20,000 bases of DNA from an uncultured virus (IMG/VR IMGVR_UViG_3300030095_004072) (Duplodnaviria > Heunggongvirae > Uroviricota > Caudoviricetes > Crassvirales). This document shows, in pieces, positions 3,743-18,982 of this stretch. Below the pieces are notes generated by a model. It ran no database searches. It was given only the letters and a program-made list of their open reading frames with translations, and was not told the DNA's origin. The translations under genes and the position numbers were made by a program. The first letter of the stretch is position 1. The number at the start of each line of letters is the position of its first letter. The stretch is from IMG/VR virus record IMGVR_UViG_3300030095_004072; one strand, 5' to 3'.

Positions 3743-3973
3743 TTAACATAATTTATCGTAATTTAATTCCATATCAGATTGTATGTTTTCTAATAAACTT
3801 TCTAATTCATCTTGCACTTCATCACCGTGAAGAATTAATTTGTTTATTATAATTTCTTTTCTTGAAGGAGTTAATCTGTCTTCAGACTCTTCTTGTTGAT
3901 AGAGCTCATAATGAACAACTATATTATTGTTTTTTGACAATAAATAGTCGTATGTACTATAGTTTGTTTTCAT
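3743..3973 (-). CDS. Hypothetical protein
   Basis: 76-aa ORF downstream of a promoter-like box at 4003-4034. Confidence 0.65.
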   Translation of the reverse strand: MKTNYSTYDYLLSKNNNIVVHYELYQQEESEDRLTPSRKEIIINKLILHGDEVQDELESLLENIQSDMELNYDKLC

Positions 3974-4002
3974 TTGTAAGTAAATTTAATTAATAACTTT
4001 GG

Positions 4003-4034
4003 TAAAAATACATAATAAATACTTAATAACCTAA
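4003..4034 (-). promoter_or_regulatory. Putative Bacteroidota-type sigma promoter
   Basis: Minus strand TTAG-N20-TATTTTTA, close to the TTTG-N19-21-TAnnTTTG consensus. The spacer contains TTATTAAGTATTTA, shared with the promoter at 6795-6826. Confidence 0.5.
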
Positions 4035-4053
4035 TAGAATAGCTTTTAATTTA

Positions 4054-4117
4054 TCGTAAGTCCCTTAGGATCTTTTTGTGTTTTTTTCGTAAGTCCATAG
4101 AGCTCGTAAGTCCATAG
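4054..4117. repeat. Three direct copies of TCGTAAGTCC (4054, 4087, 4104)
   Basis: Read directly. Copies 2 and 3 extend to 14 bp (TCGTAAGTCCATAG) with a 17-bp period. Confidence 0.85.
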
Positions 4118-4120
4118 GAC

Positions 4121-4166
4121 AAAAAAAAGACACGGAATCATATCTTTTTGGATACGAAATCGTGCC
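4121..4166 (-). terminator. Rho-independent terminator closing the putative early operon
   Basis: Minus strand GGCACG-AUU-UCGUAUC-CAAAAA-GAUAUGA-UUC-CGUGUC followed by U8, about 10 nt after the stop at 4177. Confidence 0.75.
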
Positions 4167-4176
4167 TTAAATTATT

Positions 4177-4380
4177 TTATGATTTTGACTTGATTAACTC
4201 TGCACTGCCTTTTTGAATCATCCAAAGCAACCAATCTTTGTCAACGTGTCCAACGCAACGGGCAACACCATAATAATATGCGTATCCACTTCCACGTTCC
4301 CATTTTATTGTCCAAAAATTATTTGGAGTAACATCTGTGAATTTAATCACATCATTTTTAACTATCTCTATTTTATTCAT
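4177..4380 (-). CDS. Hypothetical early protein (67 aa)
   Basis: ATG at 4380 (MNKIEIVKND...) preferred over the track start at 4419, which lies inside the conserved hairpin. Confidence 0.65.
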   Translation of the reverse strand: MNKIEIVKNDVIKFTDVTPNNFWTIKWERGSGYAYYYGVARCVGHVDKDWLLWMIQKGSAELIKSKS

Positions 4381-4409
4381 ATGTAATTTTATTAAGGCAC
4401 TATTGCCCA

Positions 4410-4451
4410 CTACCACCAAATCCCCACTGCGACTAACAGTGAGGTTGGTGG
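4410..4451 (-). repeat. Conserved 42-nt intergenic structured element, copy 1
   Basis: RNA sense CCACCAACCUCACUGUUAGUCGCAGUGGGGAUUUGGUGGUAG; aligns without gaps to copies at 5268 and 6017. Confidence 0.9.
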
Positions 4452-4468
4452 AACAAAAACAAACAAAA

Positions 4469-5239
4469 TTATTCTTTATTGATATGTTGAGTTATACAAT
4501 TTAAACTTTCTTGCATATTAGACAAGCAAGTATTGATGATTGAATTTGGTGGTGATGTTGTCACAATAGATTGACACTCATCAAAATTAGGTATATTAAA
4601 TTCTTTGTTGATTTCATCGTGAATAGTATCTTGGGTTTCAAACTGATGTACATCCTCAAGAATTTTTGCATCAACAAGTTTGTCAACACATCTAATTGCA
4701 ATATCACGTGTGTCATCATAATCTTTTAAAGTACCTTTGTCATCTGAATCCATAAATTCTTTACCAAAATAAATTTCATCAATTCTATCGTGCAACTTTC
4801 TTTTATCTAACAACAAATCATTGACTTGACTATTTAATCTATTAGCACGTTGCACTTCAGATTTAAATTTACTTTTCCACTTCTCAATCTCATATGCACG
4901 TGTATCTGTTGATGCAAATAATCTACCTAACTCAGTTATTTTATATCCTTCTTTACGACTGCGTGTCAACAATCCTTCATCAACCCATTTTCCCATTGCA
5001 ACATTATAAAATCCCGTTGAATGATGGAAACAAGTATCACCATTTCTATCAAGAAACTCCCAAACTGAATTGGATGTTTTACCAAGAGGTTTATTTTTAT
5101 GTTCAATCATTTTCTGTGCTTGACATATCATGTGTTGCAACTCTTGTTTTCTAATAATTGGATAACCTTCTTTATTTATATATTGTATGTGAGGCATTCT
5201 CATTGCCTTTATCACAAGTTTTTTTACTGTATTTTTCAT
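4469..5239 (-). CDS. Hypothetical early protein, possible winged helix plus coiled coil
   Basis: 256 aa. KWVDEGLLTRSRKEGYKITELGR resembles a wHTH wing and is followed by a heptad-rich segment. Confidence 0.75.
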   Translation of the reverse strand: MKNTVKKLVIKAMRMPHIQYINKEGYPIIRKQELQHMICQAQKMIEHKNKPLGKTSNSVWEFLDRNGDTCFHHSTGFYNVAMGKWVDEGLLTRSRKEGYKITELGRLFASTDTRAYEIEKWKSKFKSEVQRANRLNSQVNDLLLDKRKLHDRIDEIYFGKEFMDSDDKGTLKDYDDTRDIAIRCVDKLVDAKILEDVHQFETQDTIHDEINKEFNIPNFDECQSIVTTSPPNSIINTCLSNMQESLNCITQHINKE

Positions 5240-5267
5240 TTTATTTAATTTGATTATTATTTGTTTT

Positions 5268-5309
5268 CTACCACGAAATCCCCACTACGATTAGTAGTGA
5301 GGCACGTGA
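5268..5309 (-). repeat. Conserved 42-nt intergenic structured element, copy 2
   Basis: RNA sense UCACGUGCCUCACUACUAAUCGUAGUGGGGAUUUCGUGGUAG. Confidence 0.9.
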
Positions 5310-5329
5310 AAATTTCTTATGATCAAAAT

Positions 5330-5983
5330 TTATTTTCGGCTATCATCTAAAGTTTTCCAACTATCTAAAAGATTCTTAACTCTTGCAATTTGTTCAAAAT
5401 CACGTGCATCTCTGACTTGTTCTAACAAAGTTTCTAAAGCTAATATCATTACACTATTTTCAGAATCATTTAAATAACAGTGTGTTTTATTATTGGTTTG
5501 AAAAAATTTATTTGAATGTTTATACTCTCCAAAGTGAAACAAATCATCTGTGTCAGATAGTTTATCACCATTAGGTATTCCATCTATTTGTGGAGTGTCC
5601 TCTTCACGTTCAAGTCTTTCTGTCTCAGTCTCAAATTGTGATTGATATTCATCAGAATTTTTATGTAGTCTATCTTCAATATCAGAAGGTAAATGTGGGT
5701 ACATTGCATCATTCTTACCTACCCAATCTGAATCAGTTAGTGCTGATATAACTACACGTTTCATTTGATTTTGAATTGATTCTTTAATTTTTCTACCATC
5801 AGTAAATAGCATTGGAATGTCTTCAAGAAATTCTAACTCTGTACAATCATCCCAACTATCTTGTGTTTGTGACATATAACATTGTGTTCTTACTGTGTCA
5901 ATCATTTGTGCAAATGATACATCAACTGCTTTGTCAACTGCATCACTTAAATTACTAACTGTGTACTTATCTTTATTATTCAT
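5330..5983 (-). CDS. Acidic hypothetical early protein
   Basis: 217-aa D/E-rich ORF flanked by two copies of the hairpin element. Confidence 0.8.
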   Translation of the reverse strand: MNNKDKYTVSNLSDAVDKAVDVSFAQMIDTVRTQCYMSQTQDSWDDCTELEFLEDIPMLFTDGRKIKESIQNQMKRVVISALTDSDWVGKNDAMYPHLPSDIEDRLHKNSDEYQSQFETETERLEREEDTPQIDGIPNGDKLSDTDDLFHFGEYKHSNKFFQTNNKTHCYLNDSENSVMILALETLLEQVRDARDFEQIARVKNLLDSWKTLDDSRK

Positions 5984-6016
5984 ATTGTTTGTTTTTAATT
6001 TTGGAGGATTAGTCCT

Positions 6017-6058
6017 CTACCACGAAAACCCCAATGCGATTAGCATTGAGGCACGTGG
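6017..6058 (-). repeat. Conserved 42-nt intergenic structured element, copy 3
   Basis: RNA sense CCACGUGCCUCAAUGCUAAUCGCAUUGGGGUUUUCGUGGUAG. Confidence 0.9.
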
Positions 6059-6070
6059 AGTAAGTTGGTT

Positions 6071-6748
6071 TTACTTAACTAAATTCCAATAAGCAATCTC
6101 TTTATTGTAATAGTTTTTTAGTTGTGCAATACTTACAAACTTGTTTCTGTATTGGGCATCTTGAGTTGAGAAACTACCATCAACATTCTCTACAACATTA
6201 CCACTATGCATCCAATAATTGAAATACATTTCTTCATCTTGATAGTTGCTTAACACCTTTTGCATTTCTTGTTCATCTCTGTTGTTGTCATCACAGAATC
6301 CTTGAATCAATGCACGTTTGTTACCATTGTCTGCGTAGCTGAATGATGAATCAATATCACCCTCAAATAATGATGACATAAAACTACCACCCATTTGTTT
6401 ACAGTCTTTGATTACATCTGCATTACCTTTCCATAATTCTTTGAGTGCGTGAGTCAGTTGACGAGTAGCAATACCGTCACCAAATTTTGCTATCCATAAT
6501 ATCTGACTGAATGCTGTGTATGGATTACCTATTTTATTTTGAGTACGGCAAGTATCAAGTCTAATGTTAAATGCTTGACAATATTTGAAATATAGTACAA
6601 CTTGTACCTTATCATTACACTCTAATTTAGTAGAAACCTTGTCTAACATTGTAATACTAAAGTCTGCGTTTAAATACTGATTACTCCATTGTGATACGAT
6701 ATCAGATGATTTCTGATTCGTAAGTCCGATTAACGATTTTGTGTTCAT
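6071..6748 (-). CDS. Hypothetical protein, first gene of the putative early operon
   Basis: 225-aa ORF directly downstream of the promoter at 6795-6826. Confidence 0.8.
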   Translation of the reverse strand: MNTKSLIGLTNQKSSDIVSQWSNQYLNADFSITMLDKVSTKLECNDKVQVVLYFKYCQAFNIRLDTCRTQNKIGNPYTAFSQILWIAKFGDGIATRQLTHALKELWKGNADVIKDCKQMGGSFMSSLFEGDIDSSFSYADNGNKRALIQGFCDDNNRDEQEMQKVLSNYQDEEMYFNYWMHSGNVVENVDGSFSTQDAQYRNKFVSIAQLKNYYNKEIAYWNLVK

Positions 6749-6794
6749 TTTGGTTGTTTTTTAAGTGAGATATTACTCTCTGTTATTATTAATA

Positions 6795-6826
6795 TAAAGA
6801 TACTAAATACTTAATAAATAAGCAAA
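6795..6826 (-). promoter_or_regulatory. Bacteroidota-type sigma promoter driving the leftward operon
   Basis: Minus strand TTTG-N20-TATCTTTA versus consensus TTTG-N19-21-TAnnTTTG. Confidence 0.65.
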
Positions 6827-6829
6827 TAT

Positions 6830-7290
6830 ATTGATATCGGATTTTTTTTGGGTTGATTCTGGATTTTGATATTTAGAGGTGTTTAATGCGTTCTAAAGGA
6901 CTATCTTTTTCTTTTAATGTATTAGTATTAATAAAATAATTAAAGTTCTCTAATAAGATATTGATAGTGAATATTTTGTGTGATGTTTGTCAGTGTGATT
7001 TGTTTAGTGTGTGAGTGTGTCGGACTGTCGTTAAGGGAAGTCTCTTTCCCTCTCTTCTACTTTGCAAGTGAGTAAGGGTAGGTGGAGCTCCGATTTGAGT
7101 TAATGCGTTAGAACGCATCATATATATGTCTGTGCGTACGTGAGTGGGCAGTGCGTGTGCGTGTGGGGTGAAAGTAAAAGACAAAAAATTCCACAAAAAT
7201 CAAAACAAAATACAACCCCCCCCAATAAAAAAACTCCGTTTCCGTAAGCAGTAGTTATGCGTATAAGTATGTAGAACCCTCAACCCCTAA
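6830..7290. other. Non-coding divergence region with G/T to A/C skew flip (possible genome terminus, packaging site or origin)
   Basis: No credible ORF. GT-rich runs up to ~7170, then A/C-rich including a C run; several palindromes; lies at the switch in transcription direction. Confidence 0.45.
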
Positions 7291-7834: not shown

Positions 7835-9424
7835 ATGGAACAAGGTTATATACCAAAGACGCTTAGCTTTGATGATGAAGCTCGTCAAAAATTAATTACA
7901 GGAATCACTAAAATTTCAAAAGCAGTTAAAAGTACATTAGGTCCTTTGGGCAAGACTGTTTTGTTAGAATCACCAAATCATACTTCAGGCATGACAGTTA
8001 CTAAGGACGGTGTAACAGTTGCTGAGTCTGTGTTTTTAAATGATCCTATAGAGAACTTAGCAGTTAGGATGATGAAGGAAGCATCAAGTCGTACAGCTCA
8101 GTCTGCGGGTGATGGTACAACAACTGCTATTGTTTTAACTGAGGCCTTAGTTAAAGCTGGTCAGCAGACATTAACATCAGAGTCAAACACAACAGAAGTA
8201 ATTAGGTATATAAATGAACACACAGCTGTTATTATAGATGGTTTGCAAACTGCTTCTAAAAAAGTTACAGAAGAAAGGTTATTAGATGTTGCTTCTATTT
8301 CAGCTAATAATGATAAGACAATAGGTAAGATAATTAAAGATGCGTATACTCAAGTTGGGATAAACGGTATGGTAACTGTAGAGAAGTCTATGACAGCACA
8401 AACATATGCTGAGGTTACTAACGGTATTAAGATTGCCAGGGGTTGGTCATCAAATCTATTTATTAATAGTCAAAAGAAAGATGAGTGTATACTTGAAGAT
8501 GTTAAGATTTTAGTTTGCGATGCAGAAATTAATAGCATACTTCAAATAGAGAACGTGTTAAAGCCTGTAATAAACAACGGAGACAAACTTTTAATCATTG
8601 CCCCTTGCTCAACTAATGTTATAAATACTTTAGCGGCTAACGTAGTTCGTAACGGTTTAAAGTTTTGTAATATAGCTCCTCCACAGTTTGGATACAAGCA
8701 ACATGAGCTTATGCAAGATATCGCTATGTCAGTTGGTGCTAAATACTATTCAGAGAAGACTGGTGATGATTTAAGTTTAATTATGCCTAATGACTTAGGT
8801 AGTGCAGATAAAGTTATTGTAGGTGAGCATTCAACTGTAATTTTTAAAAAGGATAATACAACACCAGAGTTAAACGATAGAATTGCTGAGTTAAAAATAC
8901 AACAGAAAAACTCAAAAGATAAATCAAATAATGAATTTATAAAAGAACGTATAGCAAGTTTAGCGGGTGCTATAGGCTGTATTTATGTTGGAGGTAACTC
9001 TGAGATAGAACAAAAAGAAAAGTATGACAGAGTAGATGATTCAGTATGTGCAGTACGATCAGCACTTGAAGAAGGTATATTAGCAGGTGGAGGTATAGCT
9101 CTGTTTAGAGAATCAATGATGTTAAGAGCTGAAACTAAAAATCAAGATGAGAAAGATGCAGTCTTAATCTTAGAGGCTGCACTACGTTCACCTCTTATTC
9201 AAATATTAGACAATGCAGGAAAGAATAGAGAGAAAGTTGTAGAACAATTATATGACAAAAAATATAATTATGGATACGATGTTAAGAATAACAAGTATGG
9301 TGATATGTATAAGTTGGGTGTTATTGATCCTCTTAAGGTAACAAAGAACGCACTGACTAATGCAGTAAGTGTAGCAACAACTATACTTAGCACAAACGCT
9401 ATAGTAACAAACATGAGGGCATGA
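7835..9424 (+). CDS. groEL: Phage-encoded chaperonin GroEL (Cpn60)
   Basis: TLGPLG, VTKDGVTVA, AGDGTTTA, EEGILAGGG and GVIDPLKV motifs; 529 aa; no GGM tail. Confidence 0.97.
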   Translation: MEQGYIPKTLSFDDEARQKLITGITKISKAVKSTLGPLGKTVLLESPNHTSGMTVTKDGVTVAESVFLNDPIENLAVRMMKEASSRTAQSAGDGTTTAIVLTEALVKAGQQTLTSESNTTEVIRYINEHTAVIIDGLQTASKKVTEERLLDVASISANNDKTIGKIIKDAYTQVGINGMVTVEKSMTAQTYAEVTNGIKIARGWSSNLFINSQKKDECILEDVKILVCDAEINSILQIENVLKPVINNGDKLLIIAPCSTNVINTLAANVVRNGLKFCNIAPPQFGYKQHELMQDIAMSVGAKYYSEKTGDDLSLIMPNDLGSADKVIVGEHSTVIFKKDNTTPELNDRIAELKIQQKNSKDKSNNEFIKERIASLAGAIGCIYVGGNSEIEQKEKYDRVDDSVCAVRSALEEGILAGGGIALFRESMMLRAETKNQDEKDAVLILEAALRSPLIQILDNAGKNREKVVEQLYDKKYNYGYDVKNNKYGDMYKLGVIDPLKVTKNALTNAVSVATTILSTNAIVTNMRA

Positions 9425-9893: not shown

Positions 9894-10151
9894 ATGAAAC
9901 CAATTGGTAAGTATGTTATAATAAAACCTATAAAAGAAGAATTAAAAACTAAATCAGGATTAATTCTTACAGCAGAAGACGCTGATGAGTTTAGGTATAA
10001 AAAAGGTGAAGTAATAAAACCAGGTACTGATGTCTCAGAAATCAAAGAAGGTCAAATTATTTATTATGATAAGTCTGCTGGCTTTAGTATGCTTATACAT
10101 AATGATACTTTTACTATTATTACTGAGAGAGATATCGTTGTTGTTTTATAA
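9894..10151 (+). CDS. groES: Co-chaperonin GroES (Cpn10)
   Basis: MKPIGKYVII, mobile loop KTKSGLIL, GEVIKPG, ITERDIV; lies near groEL. Confidence 0.92.
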   Translation: MKPIGKYVIIKPIKEELKTKSGLILTAEDADEFRYKKGEVIKPGTDVSEIKEGQIIYYDKSAGFSMLIHNDTFTIITERDIVVVL

Positions 10152-16363: not shown

Positions 16364-18982
16364 ATGGCAATTAATTTTTTACAAGACGTATCCTTAAATA
16401 ATACGCAATTAACAAATTTTAAGGTACAAAATTTAACAGGAACACTTCCGTCAAGTTTAGGTGGAGAGGGTCAGTTAATATATAAAACAGATACTAACGA
16501 ACTTTATTTACACAAAGGATCAAACTCTTGGGAGGAATTAAGCACAGGCGGATCGGTTACTTCTGTAGGTGTTTCAAGTAATTACTTAACTATTGGTAGT
16601 TCGCCAATAACAAGTAGTGGAACAATATCAGTTAATGTGCCAAACTCTGGCGTAACTGCAGCATCATATACTCATGCAAGTATTACTGTAAATGCACAAG
16701 GTATTGTAACTGCAGCATCAAATGGTACTGCTACATTAGGTGTAACTTCATTCACTAATGCTAACGGAACATTTGTTTCTGCTGGAACAGCAAATTCAAG
16801 TGCAACAGGTGCTGTAACAATGGGTACTATTGATTTATCAGCAGGAGGAACACCAAGTTCTTCTACGTTCTTAAGAGGTGATAATACATGGGCATCTGTA
16901 CCTGGGGGATATACTTCATGGACACTACAAGGTGATTCAGGTACTAATCTAACGGTAACTGACGGAACAACAATTGATCTTGCAGGTGGTACGGGTGTTT
17001 CTACAGCAACTACAGCTACAGGAATGACAATAACAAATACAGGTGTGACTTCTGCAGTAGCAGGATCAAATATATCTGTAAGTAGTGCAACAGGTGCTGT
17101 AACAATAGCATACACGGGAGGAACAGGTTCTATGAATTCTTGGAATTTAGCAGGAGACAGTGGTTCTCAAAGTATTGTTAATGGAAATACAGCAACCTTT
17201 ATTGGTGGAACGGGGTTAACAACCGCTGCAAGTGCATCGGATGATTTAACTATTACTCTTGATGATACAGCAGTATCTCCTGGTTCATATACTTTAGCAT
17301 CTATTACAGTTGACCAACAAGGGCGTATTACTTCTGCTTCAAGTGGTTCTTCAGGGGCGATGACAACATGGAAAATTGGTTCTACTTCAGGAACAGATCA
17401 AACGGTAAGTGATGGACAAACAGTAGACGTTGTTGGGGGAACATATATAACAGGATCAGTTGGAGGAACGAGAACAGTTACTCTTGCTCACGACACAACA
17501 TCAAGAACAAACAACACAAGCTCCACTTCTCCAGGATCAGCAGGAACATTTACTGCTATTGACACTATTACTACTAATACTACAGGTCACGTAACAGCTG
17601 TTAATACAAAAACTGTTACAATGCCTACTGTACCTACAAGTGATAATTATCAATACTGGACTTTACAAGGTGATACAGGAACAAACTTAAATGTAACAAG
17701 TACATTGGTTGCTGATATTGCGGGTGGAGACGGTATATCTACAGCAACAACTGCTACAGGAATGACTCTTACTAATGACGGGGTTATTGAGGCAGCAGCA
17801 AGCACAGGTATTAGTGTTAGTTCAGCTACGGGGTCAGTTACCTTTACAAATACAGGGGTAACTTCAGTTGCGGGAGGCACAGGAATAAGCGTTAGTGCTT
17901 CTACTGGAGGTGTTACAATAACTAACACATCTACTAATACTGATGCAAATTATGCATTAAGTGTAGGAGCTGTATCATCAAACGAATCTACATTATCGTT
18001 AGTTGGTTCTTCAGGAGGTTCTACAACAACAGCTAAATTCTCTGGAACTTCTAATGAAATACAAATAACAACTCCATCTACAGGAAACGGAGGTGATATA
18101 ACTATTGGATTACCAGATGATGTAACTATAACATCGGATTTAACAGTTGGAGATAACTTAACAATGACAGGTGGTAATTTAAGTGTTACGGGTACTGGTT
18201 CATTTACAGGACAAGTAACTGTACCAACAACACCTTCAGCTTCAACTGATGCTGCATCTAAAAATTATGTAGATACAAGTATTTCAGGTTCAGGAGCTTT
18301 AATTTATCAAGGAGGATATAATGCAAGTACGAATACTCCAAACTTAACAAGTACAGGTCAAGGAATATTAAAAGGATTTACTTATGCTGTAACAGCAGCA
18401 GGTAATGCATCTGGATTCTGGAGTCCTACTTTAGAAATTGGTGATTTAGTTATTGCTAATCAAGATAATCCTGCATCGGCAGCTGATTGGACTGAAATTA
18501 ACAAAAACATTGACGTTGCAACAGCAACAGTTCAAGGTATTGCTAACTTCCCAACTGCTGGCGGACTTTCAGTTTCTAATGGGGCTGTTAGTATGGCAAC
18601 TCAAACTTCTAACGGGACTTACGGTGGAGTTACAAAATCATTATCAACTACAATAGATACTAAGGGTAGGGTTACTGCGATGTCAGAAAATACTATTGCA
18701 ATACCAGCATCACAGATTACAGATTTTTGTGCAGCTGTAACAACTTGTATTGGTAACAATCATAATTACGCAGTAGATATTGGAGATGATTCTGCTACAA
18801 CATATGTTGTTACTCATAACTTAGGAACAAGAGACGTTATGGTTCAATGTTACTACACTGCTTCTCCTTATGGAACAGTAGAGCTTCAAGTTGAAAGAAA
18901 TTCTACAAGTCAAGTTACTTTAAGTACAGTTGATGCTTTAGCTAATGATTCTGTTAGAGTTTTAGTTACTGAGATACTTTAA
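16364..18982 (+). CDS. Long tail fibre / receptor-binding protein
   Basis: 872 aa, T/S/G-rich. Tail-fibre repeats (SYT.ASITV..QG..T.AS), TFLRGDNTW, DAASKNYVD and a C-terminal VTHNLG module. Confidence 0.85.
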   Translation: MAINFLQDVSLNNTQLTNFKVQNLTGTLPSSLGGEGQLIYKTDTNELYLHKGSNSWEELSTGGSVTSVGVSSNYLTIGSSPITSSGTISVNVPNSGVTAASYTHASITVNAQGIVTAASNGTATLGVTSFTNANGTFVSAGTANSSATGAVTMGTIDLSAGGTPSSSTFLRGDNTWASVPGGYTSWTLQGDSGTNLTVTDGTTIDLAGGTGVSTATTATGMTITNTGVTSAVAGSNISVSSATGAVTIAYTGGTGSMNSWNLAGDSGSQSIVNGNTATFIGGTGLTTAASASDDLTITLDDTAVSPGSYTLASITVDQQGRITSASSGSSGAMTTWKIGSTSGTDQTVSDGQTVDVVGGTYITGSVGGTRTVTLAHDTTSRTNNTSSTSPGSAGTFTAIDTITTNTTGHVTAVNTKTVTMPTVPTSDNYQYWTLQGDTGTNLNVTSTLVADIAGGDGISTATTATGMTLTNDGVIEAAASTGISVSSATGSVTFTNTGVTSVAGGTGISVSASTGGVTITNTSTNTDANYALSVGAVSSNESTLSLVGSSGGSTTTAKFSGTSNEIQITTPSTGNGGDITIGLPDDVTITSDLTVGDNLTMTGGNLSVTGTGSFTGQVTVPTTPSASTDAASKNYVDTSISGSGALIYQGGYNASTNTPNLTSTGQGILKGFTYAVTAAGNASGFWSPTLEIGDLVIANQDNPASAADWTEINKNIDVATATVQGIANFPTAGGLSVSNGAVSMATQTSNGTYGGVTKSLSTTIDTKGRVTAMSENTIAIPASQITDFCAAVTTCIGNNHNYAVDIGDDSATTYVVTHNLGTRDVMVQCYYTASPYGTVELQVERNSTSQVTLSTVDALANDSVRVLVTEIL

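Follow-up and report, generated by a model that had tools for sequence, protein, structure and literature searches.

A two-tier RNA hairpin family at gene junctions of flavobacterial phages, a candidate leaky terminator or messenger RNA stabilizer

INTRODUCTION

In phage T7, the early transcript carries RNase III processing sites (R0.3 to R1.3), one irregular hairpin per gene junction; these sites span about two helical turns, and RNase III itself has little sequence specificity. Intrinsic terminators and attenuators behind highly expressed phage genes are GC-based hairpins followed by U's, while REP and BIME elements are repeated imperfect palindromes just past stop codons that can stabilize the upstream messenger RNA (mRNA), occur in hundreds of copies on host chromosomes, and accompany RAYT transposases. 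In T4-type phages, PeSL elements combine a strong sigma-70-type promoter, a Shine-Dalgarno site, and a stem-loop that is an effective terminator, and these units are conserved while the intervening genes are replaced, inserted, or deleted (PMC2839356, PMC4122927). Here, we describe an element with traits of each of these systems in a 20,000-nucleotide (nt) stretch of DNA (hereafter, the window) from an uncultured Crassvirales virus (IMG/VR record IMGVR_UViG_3300030095_004072): a 42-nt hairpin encoded three times on the minus strand, once at each junction of a putative early operon of four genes.

Like the T7 sites, the hairpin occurs once per junction, is built of an upper stem, an asymmetric internal loop, and a lower stem, comes in copies that resemble each other within one phage, and would leave a hairpin-ended upstream mRNA if cut. 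Unlike them, it has a shorter helix (14-16 base pairs, bp), a U-run straight after the upper stem, and a strongly conserved base and tail; it bears no sequence relation to the T7 sites, comes from a phage with a flavobacterial host, is also found behind the capsid gene of unrelated phages, and its cleavage is here a prediction. With intrinsic terminators it shares the GC-based hairpin followed by U's, 12-20 nt past a stop codon, a post-head-gene place that matches a canonical terminator of the phage TvV S20, and a type of hairpin common to many canonical terminators. It departs from them in that the U-run is cut to 3-6 nt, an invariant G-rich tail pairs back to the 5' flank, and the transcription unit goes on. 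As with REP and BIME, repeated imperfect palindromes lie just past stop codons and would be able to stabilize upstream mRNA, but searches of flavobacterial chromosomes did not turn up the family, and a transposase was not encountered in the 63 scanned open reading frames (ORFs; 34 of the 63 of relative G002 and 29 of the 45 of relative G006, ORFs of at least 70 amino acids [aa]). With 1-4 copies per genome and neither integrase nor transposase among these ORFs, the element belongs neither to integron attC sites nor to REP sequences with a RAYT. The likeness to PeSL, drawn in an earlier note on this DNA, is a partial one. Both are conserved intergenic stem-loop units of ~90-100 bp between small genes without annotated function, the genes being variable (PMC2839356, PMC4122927), and here, too, the units that border variable genes are conserved and delimit insertions, deletions, and replacements. 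However, the junctions described below contain no promoter-like motif, so that this part of the comparison fails; the downstream genes depend on read-through, and copies are few (1-4 per genome).

RESULTS AND DISCUSSION

One hairpin at each junction of a four-gene unit

The three copies lie on the minus strand at 6058-6017 (gene 1/gene 2 junction; covariance model score 75.7 bits), 5309-5268 (gene 2/gene 3; 71.3 bits), and 4451-4410 (gene 3/gene 4; 68.2 bits), and they align over all 42 nt without gaps, as found by reading the sequence and with a repeat finder (family D1). A degenerate 27-nt pattern matched exactly these three sites in the window and gave no match in any of 200 dinucleotide shuffles. 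When the covariance model was run over the whole 20-kb window with filters off, only the three copies were recovered (68-76 bits), the next-best match, at 16 bits, being the reverse strand of copy 3. The copies begin 12, 20, and 17 nt past the stop codons of genes 1, 2, and 3 (6071-6748, 5330-5983, and 4469-5239) and stop 33, 28, and 29 nt short of the ATG codons at 5983, 5239, and 4380.

The predicted fold consists of a 5-bp outer stem (lengthened to 7 bp in copy 3, 4410..4451), an asymmetric internal loop with 2 nt on its 5' side and 4 nt on its 3' side, a 9-bp inner stem, and a 5-nt loop, UA(A/G)UC. On the sense strand, the minimum free energies of copies 1 to 3 were -24.8, -19.0, and -24.1 kcal/mol (z -5.5, -4.3, and -3.6), and the antisense strands folded more weakly (-17.4, -14.5, and -18.3 kcal/mol). 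Differences among the copies are compensatory at inner pair 6 (A-U/C-G), inner pair 8 (G-C/A-U), and the innermost outer pair (G-C/C-G). The earlier note had described three ungapped copies, one per junction, 12-20 nt after a stop codon and 28-33 nt before the next ATG, with this fold and these compensatory differences, and our sequence reading, repeat finder, pattern search, folding, and covariance model all agree with it.

Each copy is part of a longer junction module: IG1 (5984..6070), which runs from the stop codon through the hairpin and an A/U-rich leader to the ATG, IG2 (5240..5329), and IG3 (4381..4468), all read on the minus strand. A second small hairpin follows the element in some junctions, at 6017-6004 in IG1 (GAGGA-CUAA-UCCUC) and at 4407-4396 in IG3 (GGCA-AUAG-UGCC). 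The latter was found again in the distinct contigs L015, L128, L129, and L005; therefore, the conserved module may exceed 42 nt.

A covarying RNA family that is new to Rfam

Exact-pattern scans turned up 10 viral contigs, the nearest record (G001) among them, with the same three variants, each tied to its position, and a scan with the 3' half alone recovered far more divergent members. Two rounds of covariance-model search in viral contigs gave at least 38 matches (32 distinct), and a search of marine metagenomes gave at least 98 matches (77 distinct) in 80 loci. The family comprises at least 95 distinct sequences, and members were seen in no fewer than 20 viral contigs and in over 124 loci of marine metagenomes. 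Its consensus opens with the 5' arm CCACS and 0-3 nt, continues with a 9-bp inner hairpin (CCUCA…UGGGG) and WUUU, and closes with the 3' arm SGUGG and UA. WUUU follows the GC base in all members, with 3-6 U in copies that had not been chosen by the 3' pattern, and 13 distinct copies that fall outside the 3' search pattern still have both WUUU and (U)GGUA.

The inner helix is paired at 98.5% in the 32 distinct viral-contig sequences and at 99.0% in the 77 metagenome sequences. None of 500 shuffles attained the observed covariation score, and slid controls fell to 37-52% pairing. Two-sided changes occur at five of the nine inner pairs, and pairs 6-9 are altered on both sides in many sequences (e.g., pair 8 in 43 of 77). 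The covariation in homologs that would be expected of a structured cis-acting RNA, as the earlier note had proposed, is thus strong in both sets. Inner pair 3 is U•G in 28 of 32 and in 73 of 77 sequences, where the opposite strand would have a C/A mismatch, so the claim that the wobble pairs work only on the mRNA strand extends to the family. The loops vary freely, GAAA being the most frequent (19/95) and other GNRA loops and UUCG also being present. The U•G wobble and the frequent GNRA loops point to RNA on the sense strand, and, judged by these substitution patterns, the element is a structured, strand-specific RNA of the mRNA strand.

The outer helix is real, but weaker than the inner helix. 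It is 68-77% paired in model-fitted alignments and imperfect or shifted in 11 of 32 members. A base-preserving shuffle of the 5' flank was uninformative (a mean of 6.0 paired tail bases vs 6.4 observed). With a random 5' flank from the same locus as the control, GUGG was fully paired to the adjacent 12 nt in 21 of 32 real members vs 17% of controls, and the real flank made the fold ~4 kcal/mol more stable than the random one.

The hairpin had not been recognized as a described motif, and this held in our searches. The whole window had no match in Rfam 15 at the gathering score, with Flavo-1 included in the families searched. When 3900-7000 was searched at E<=10, only chance matches to small nucleolar and small RNAs were returned, six of them away from the copies; a PsrR1 match that overlaps copy 1 is at chance level (20.2 bits vs a gathering score of 42, E 1.4). 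Rfam 15 at E<=1 gave no match in the loci of 11 other members, and no description of the hairpin family was found in a literature search. The family is therefore a structured RNA new to Rfam, while the kind of element is familiar. What distinguishes it is its flavobacterial host range, its occurrence in unrelated lineages including a post-capsid site, and a terminator-derived core with a clamp helix and an invariant tail.

A second junction-hairpin family was observed in large viral contigs (L276, L278, L289, L293, and about 20 other loci). It has the same CCTCAC…GTGGGG-ATTT core, another tail (CTATTAACCAA), and a 5' flank CCAAT, and its copies come in pairs ~395-404 nt apart.

Genomic context and host range

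In a first set of 29 copies, every one points the same way as its neighboring ORFs and falls in the space between called genes; three of them are overlapped, solely by short and probably spurious ORFs (57-64 aa). Twenty-four of the 29 sit no more than 20 nt past a stop codon, and 28 sit no more than 44 nt ahead of an ATG, the distance from element to next ATG being 10-44 nt. Metagenome copies behave similarly, with at most 25 nt to the preceding stop in 55 of 70, at most 50 nt to the following ATG in 65 of 73, and a same-strand ORF overlap in 1 of 77. Copies are few and clustered (1-4 per genome): three in G002 (complete, 65.6 kb, with terminal repeats) and in G004, two in G003, and one each in G005 and G006 (complete, 36 kb).

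The element was initially thought to belong to the early operon, which proved too narrow. In G006 (locus L103) and in two similar contigs, L132 and L028, it immediately follows the gene for the major head protein (phrog_10, E 1e-36 to 1e-38), 12-14 nt from the ATG of the next small ORF; hence, it is not confined to early operons. Because the next ATG is so close in these post-capsid contigs, and because the window junctions have no promoter-like motif, the element must be leaky, i.e., read through. The siphovirus-like G006 and the podovirus-like genomes share a single weak blastp match (an exonuclease, E 5e-5), and the 63 scanned ORFs revealed no phage RNA polymerase, RNase, integrase, or transposase. 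A phage-encoded reader common to both lineages was rejected on the basis of the blastp comparison: since the lineages share no proteins bar the weak exonuclease match, and neither an RNA polymerase nor an RNase was seen in those ORFs, such a reader is unlikely. From this distribution, a host factor probably reads the element. A further observation in G002 is a 2018-aa ORF beside structural genes (L219:13780-19836), without a PHROG match at E<=1e-5, which may encode a giant virion protein.

The nearest cultured phages by GroEL and capsid similarity infect Flavobacterium and Cellulophaga, and GC content is 32-35% in the genomes compared. No copy was found in the nearest cultured or named relatives, i.e., MW202828, the Flavobacterium phages snusmum9-1 and elemoE, and TvV S20 (best E 0.08). 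Searched against the phage collection, 3900-7000 gave no blastn match, and a 72-nt family member gave only chance matches at E<=10. The strict pattern, run over one genome from each of 185,579 species, had nine matches. Two are credible and lie on short contigs in a Parvicellaceae metagenome-assembled genome (MAG) and an Aliivibrio MAG, Parvicellaceae belonging to the Flavobacteriales; two others, from Pelagimonas MAGs, are GC-rich hairpins of doubtful membership, and the last five lack the family fold. In 151 Flavobacteriales genomes, with 39 candidates scored per genome, the covariance model found the seed MAG and four marginal, unconvincing matches. In the searched genomes, the element is a phage element and not a host chromosomal repeat.

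Conserved junction modules amid changing genes

The idea that genes vary around the junctions holds among relatives, where the genes differ to a much greater extent than the junctions. The three junction modules of G002 match those of the window at 97-99% identity (IG1 97%, IG2 98%, IG3 99%), and in contig L005, identity to the window is 97%, 98%, and 78% for IG1, IG2, and IG3, whereas the flanking genes in relatives are 28-71% identical or replaced. The window shares 60% (gene 2) and 71% (gene 3) DNA identity with G002 and 68% and 61%, respectively, with L005. Gene 1 is replaced in L005 by an unrelated 121-aa ORF, and IG1 is nonetheless 97% identical. Homologs of gene 2 range from 154 to 271 aa with 38-88% amino-acid identity, and the 3' end of gene 2 cannot be aligned to G002 or L005, right beside the 98%-identical IG2. 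Identity sets in sharply at the stop codon and then fades gradually into the 5' part of the next gene. In G002 and one metagenome contig, a gene of ~300 nt is inserted right before the gene 4 ATG and brings no extra copy of the element.

By these identities, the whole junction module is more constrained than the genes. Erf-type annealing proteins and exonucleases are encoded in both complete genomes and could act on homologies as long as a junction module. The comparisons support a picture in which the ~90-nt junction modules form a stable skeleton for the divergence and exchange of early genes, as a side effect.

Function of the element

Our best reading, to be taken as tentative, is that the element acts as a leaky terminator and stabilizer hairpin in polycistronic mRNA. 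The core is a terminator-type hairpin, with a GC-rich base (CCUCA/UGGGG), a variable top that often ends in a GNRA loop, and 3-6 U after it. Hairpins of the form CCUCAC…GUGGGG with long U-runs are common canonical terminators in viral contigs, and TvV S20, a cultured relative by capsid similarity, has a canonical GC-rich 13-bp hairpin followed by U5 in the spacer between its capsid gene and the next gene (L355:2695-2765). The terminator-type core, the canonical terminator at the post-capsid site of TvV S20, and the place 12-20 nt past stop codons together favor a leaky terminator or 3' stabilizer. That there is no U-tract, and that these hairpins are consequently not terminators, had been put too strongly, given the 3-6 U that follow a terminator-type GC hairpin in every member. 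The element may be a cis-acting RNA punctuation signal, read by the host machinery rather than by any phage protein. Host RNA polymerase would terminate at it part of the time (attenuation), transcripts ended or trimmed there would keep the hairpin as a barrier to 3' exonucleases, and the upstream gene would be expressed more, and for longer, than the genes behind the element. On read-through, SGUGG would pair back with CCACS ahead of the hairpin, and this pairing would clamp the U-rich stretch into an internal loop, giving the two-tier fold.

Several observations speak against this role as a leaky terminator and stabilizer. Only 3-4 U follow the hairpin in the window before a G-rich tail begins, whereas the true terminators of the same window have U8 or U5AUUU, and a consensus terminator scan that asks for at least 5 T in 8 passes over the copies. 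Compared with an intrinsic terminator proper, the element does not mark the end of a transcription unit, the next ATG following 10-44 nt on without an intervening promoter-like motif. Termination does not account for the outer helix, with its excess over controls (21/32 vs 17%) and its C-G/G-C switch at the innermost pair, and neither termination nor a passive barrier accounts for the near-invariant (U)GGUA tail. Finally, the covariation counts rest on alignments fitted to the covariance model.

As a rival reading, the element may be a site for host RNase III, or another double-strand-specific endonuclease, which would cut in or next to the U-rich internal loop of a read-through transcript, separate the cistrons, and leave the inner hairpin at the upstream 3' end. 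This is possible by analogy with T7, and we rank it second to attenuation and stabilization, as rather unlikely in itself. The two-tier architecture of upper stem, asymmetric internal loop, and lower stem between cistrons of a polycistronic mRNA, the enrichment of the outer helix over controls, and the single copy per junction of the early operon all suit such a site, and the clamp helix is what a substrate of the T7 early type would need. Of 31 Flavobacteriales genomes sampled, 30 have an RNase III gene, with 22 scoring above the family cut-off. Cleavage within the internal loop would give the same hairpin-plus-U 3' end, so both routes lead to one product, an upstream message that ends in a hairpin and U's. 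However, the helix is short beside the T7 sites (14-16 bp in total plus the internal loop, with a lower stem of ~5 bp), 11 of 32 members have an imperfect or shifted outer helix, and an enzyme of low sequence specificity leaves the invariant CCUCA/UGGGG base, WUUU, and (U)GGUA tail unexplained. It is this invariance of tail and hairpin base, across two phage lineages without shared proteins, that would suit a sequence-specific host factor, acting either on the elongating polymerase (pausing or antitermination, in a nut/put-like manner) or on how the following cistron is translated, in a host not reliant on Shine-Dalgarno pairing. The fixed place before an A/U-rich leader, 10-44 nt ahead of the ATG, fits as well, but the spread of that same distance, the freely varying loops (which argue against a loop-specific reader), and the mostly base-paired state of the conserved tail do not. 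We know of no candidate factor, and the element was not found on host chromosomes (four marginal, unconvincing matches in 150 sampled Flavobacteriales genomes besides the seed MAG). We consider such a binding site doubtful and place it third. For a nut/boxA-like form of it, the portion of PMC10250234 drawn on treats E. coli and offers no flavobacterial boxA for comparison.

A variant that is a little less probable still, and that we regard as improbable, is a Flavobacteriia-specific signal in which the hairpin base, the U's, and the (U)GGUA tail are recognized by RNA polymerase or an RNA-binding factor; it would couple regulated pausing or termination to expression of the next cistron in a clade without Shine-Dalgarno-guided initiation, the module having been gained horizontally by unrelated phages. 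Last, and very unlikely, is a mainly DNA-level role without an RNA function of its own, either as a recombination joint or as the boundary of a mobile cassette (PeSL-like, or an attC/REP-like single-strand site). The 97-99% identity of modules whose neighboring genes have been exchanged (gene 1, in L005) or newly added (a ~300-nt insertion behind IG3, in G002 and in a metagenome contig), the Erf-type annealing proteins and exonucleases of both complete genomes, and the sharing of the element by unrelated phages are all compatible with a joint. Against it, wobble pairs and GNRA loops are selected on the transcribed strand only, orientation is always that of the genes, and identity begins exactly at stop codons, which indicates constraint on a non-coding unit. 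In addition, the gene inserted in G002 came without an extra copy, no integrase or transposase was seen among the scanned ORFs, and genomes have merely 1-4 copies. N4-type hairpin promoters, T7-type promoters, T-box-like tRNA pairing, anti-Shine-Dalgarno mimicry, CRISPR-repeat mimics, and kink-turns were also considered and dropped as poor fits.

Other features of the window

The four genes are one transcription unit on the minus strand, which runs from a promoter-like motif (6795..6827, before gene 1) to a long hairpin followed by U8 that resembles an intrinsic terminator (~4119..4168, -17.8 kcal/mol, z -4.3), in agreement with the promoter near 6800 and the terminator near 4140 that the earlier note had placed there. 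The genes encode proteins of 225 aa (gene 1), 217 aa (gene 2), 256 aa (gene 3), and 67 aa (gene 4, 4177..4380). None of the four has an assigned function or matched a known protein family, gene 3 having a weak PHROG match to 'transcriptional regulator' (E 0.004).

The promoter-like motif is ~35 nt long (ATTTGG…TATGTATTTTTA) and occurs three times on the minus strand, each time ahead of a leftward gene block, at 6795-6827, 4002-4039, and 1485-1522 (repeat families D3 and D5); these are its only copies in the window, and none lies in the three hairpin junctions. We take it to resemble the Bacteroidota -33/-7 promoter type, and from their sequence and placement, the three motifs look like host-type early promoters of the phage. 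A sigma-70 promoter scan of the window yielded no more than it did in shuffled controls, and a scan for transfer RNA and transfer-messenger RNA genes found none.

Upstream of the four-gene unit, a non-coding, G/T-rich island of 220 nt (6975-7190) has a GC content of 42-47% vs 21-30% on either side and lies in a divergent region, with the leftward early unit on one side and rightward genes on the other. It has no Rfam match and no convincing ORF and could be a non-coding RNA, a replication origin, or a regulatory region. Further on, the window encodes a phage GroEL and GroES pair (7835-9424, phrog_5725, E 9e-133, and 9894-10151, E 1e-18), the nearest named relative of the GroEL being 56% identical (MW202828) and those of Flavobacterium phages 37-38% identical. 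An 872-aa structural protein (16364-18982) contains internal DNA repeats (families D2, D7, and D14), which suggests tandem repeat domains.

Implications

The hairpin adds to the catalog a well-supported structured RNA family that it had lacked, one that covaries strongly and counts at least 95 distinct sequences and over 124 loci in marine metagenomes. Its carriers are phages of marine Flavobacteriia, hosts in which transcription termination, mRNA processing, and translation initiation are little understood and differ from those of model bacteria. Since two phage lineages without shared proteins use the element, and the searched host chromosomes are without it, it offers a handle on a host RNA-handling activity that is exploited by phages. 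It is also a clear case of conserved junction modules serving as a stable frame for early genes that change fast. The element could become a compact expression-tuning part for Bacteroidota, provided that its tail is read specifically. In the phages themselves, it most likely sets the ends and lifetimes of mRNAs.

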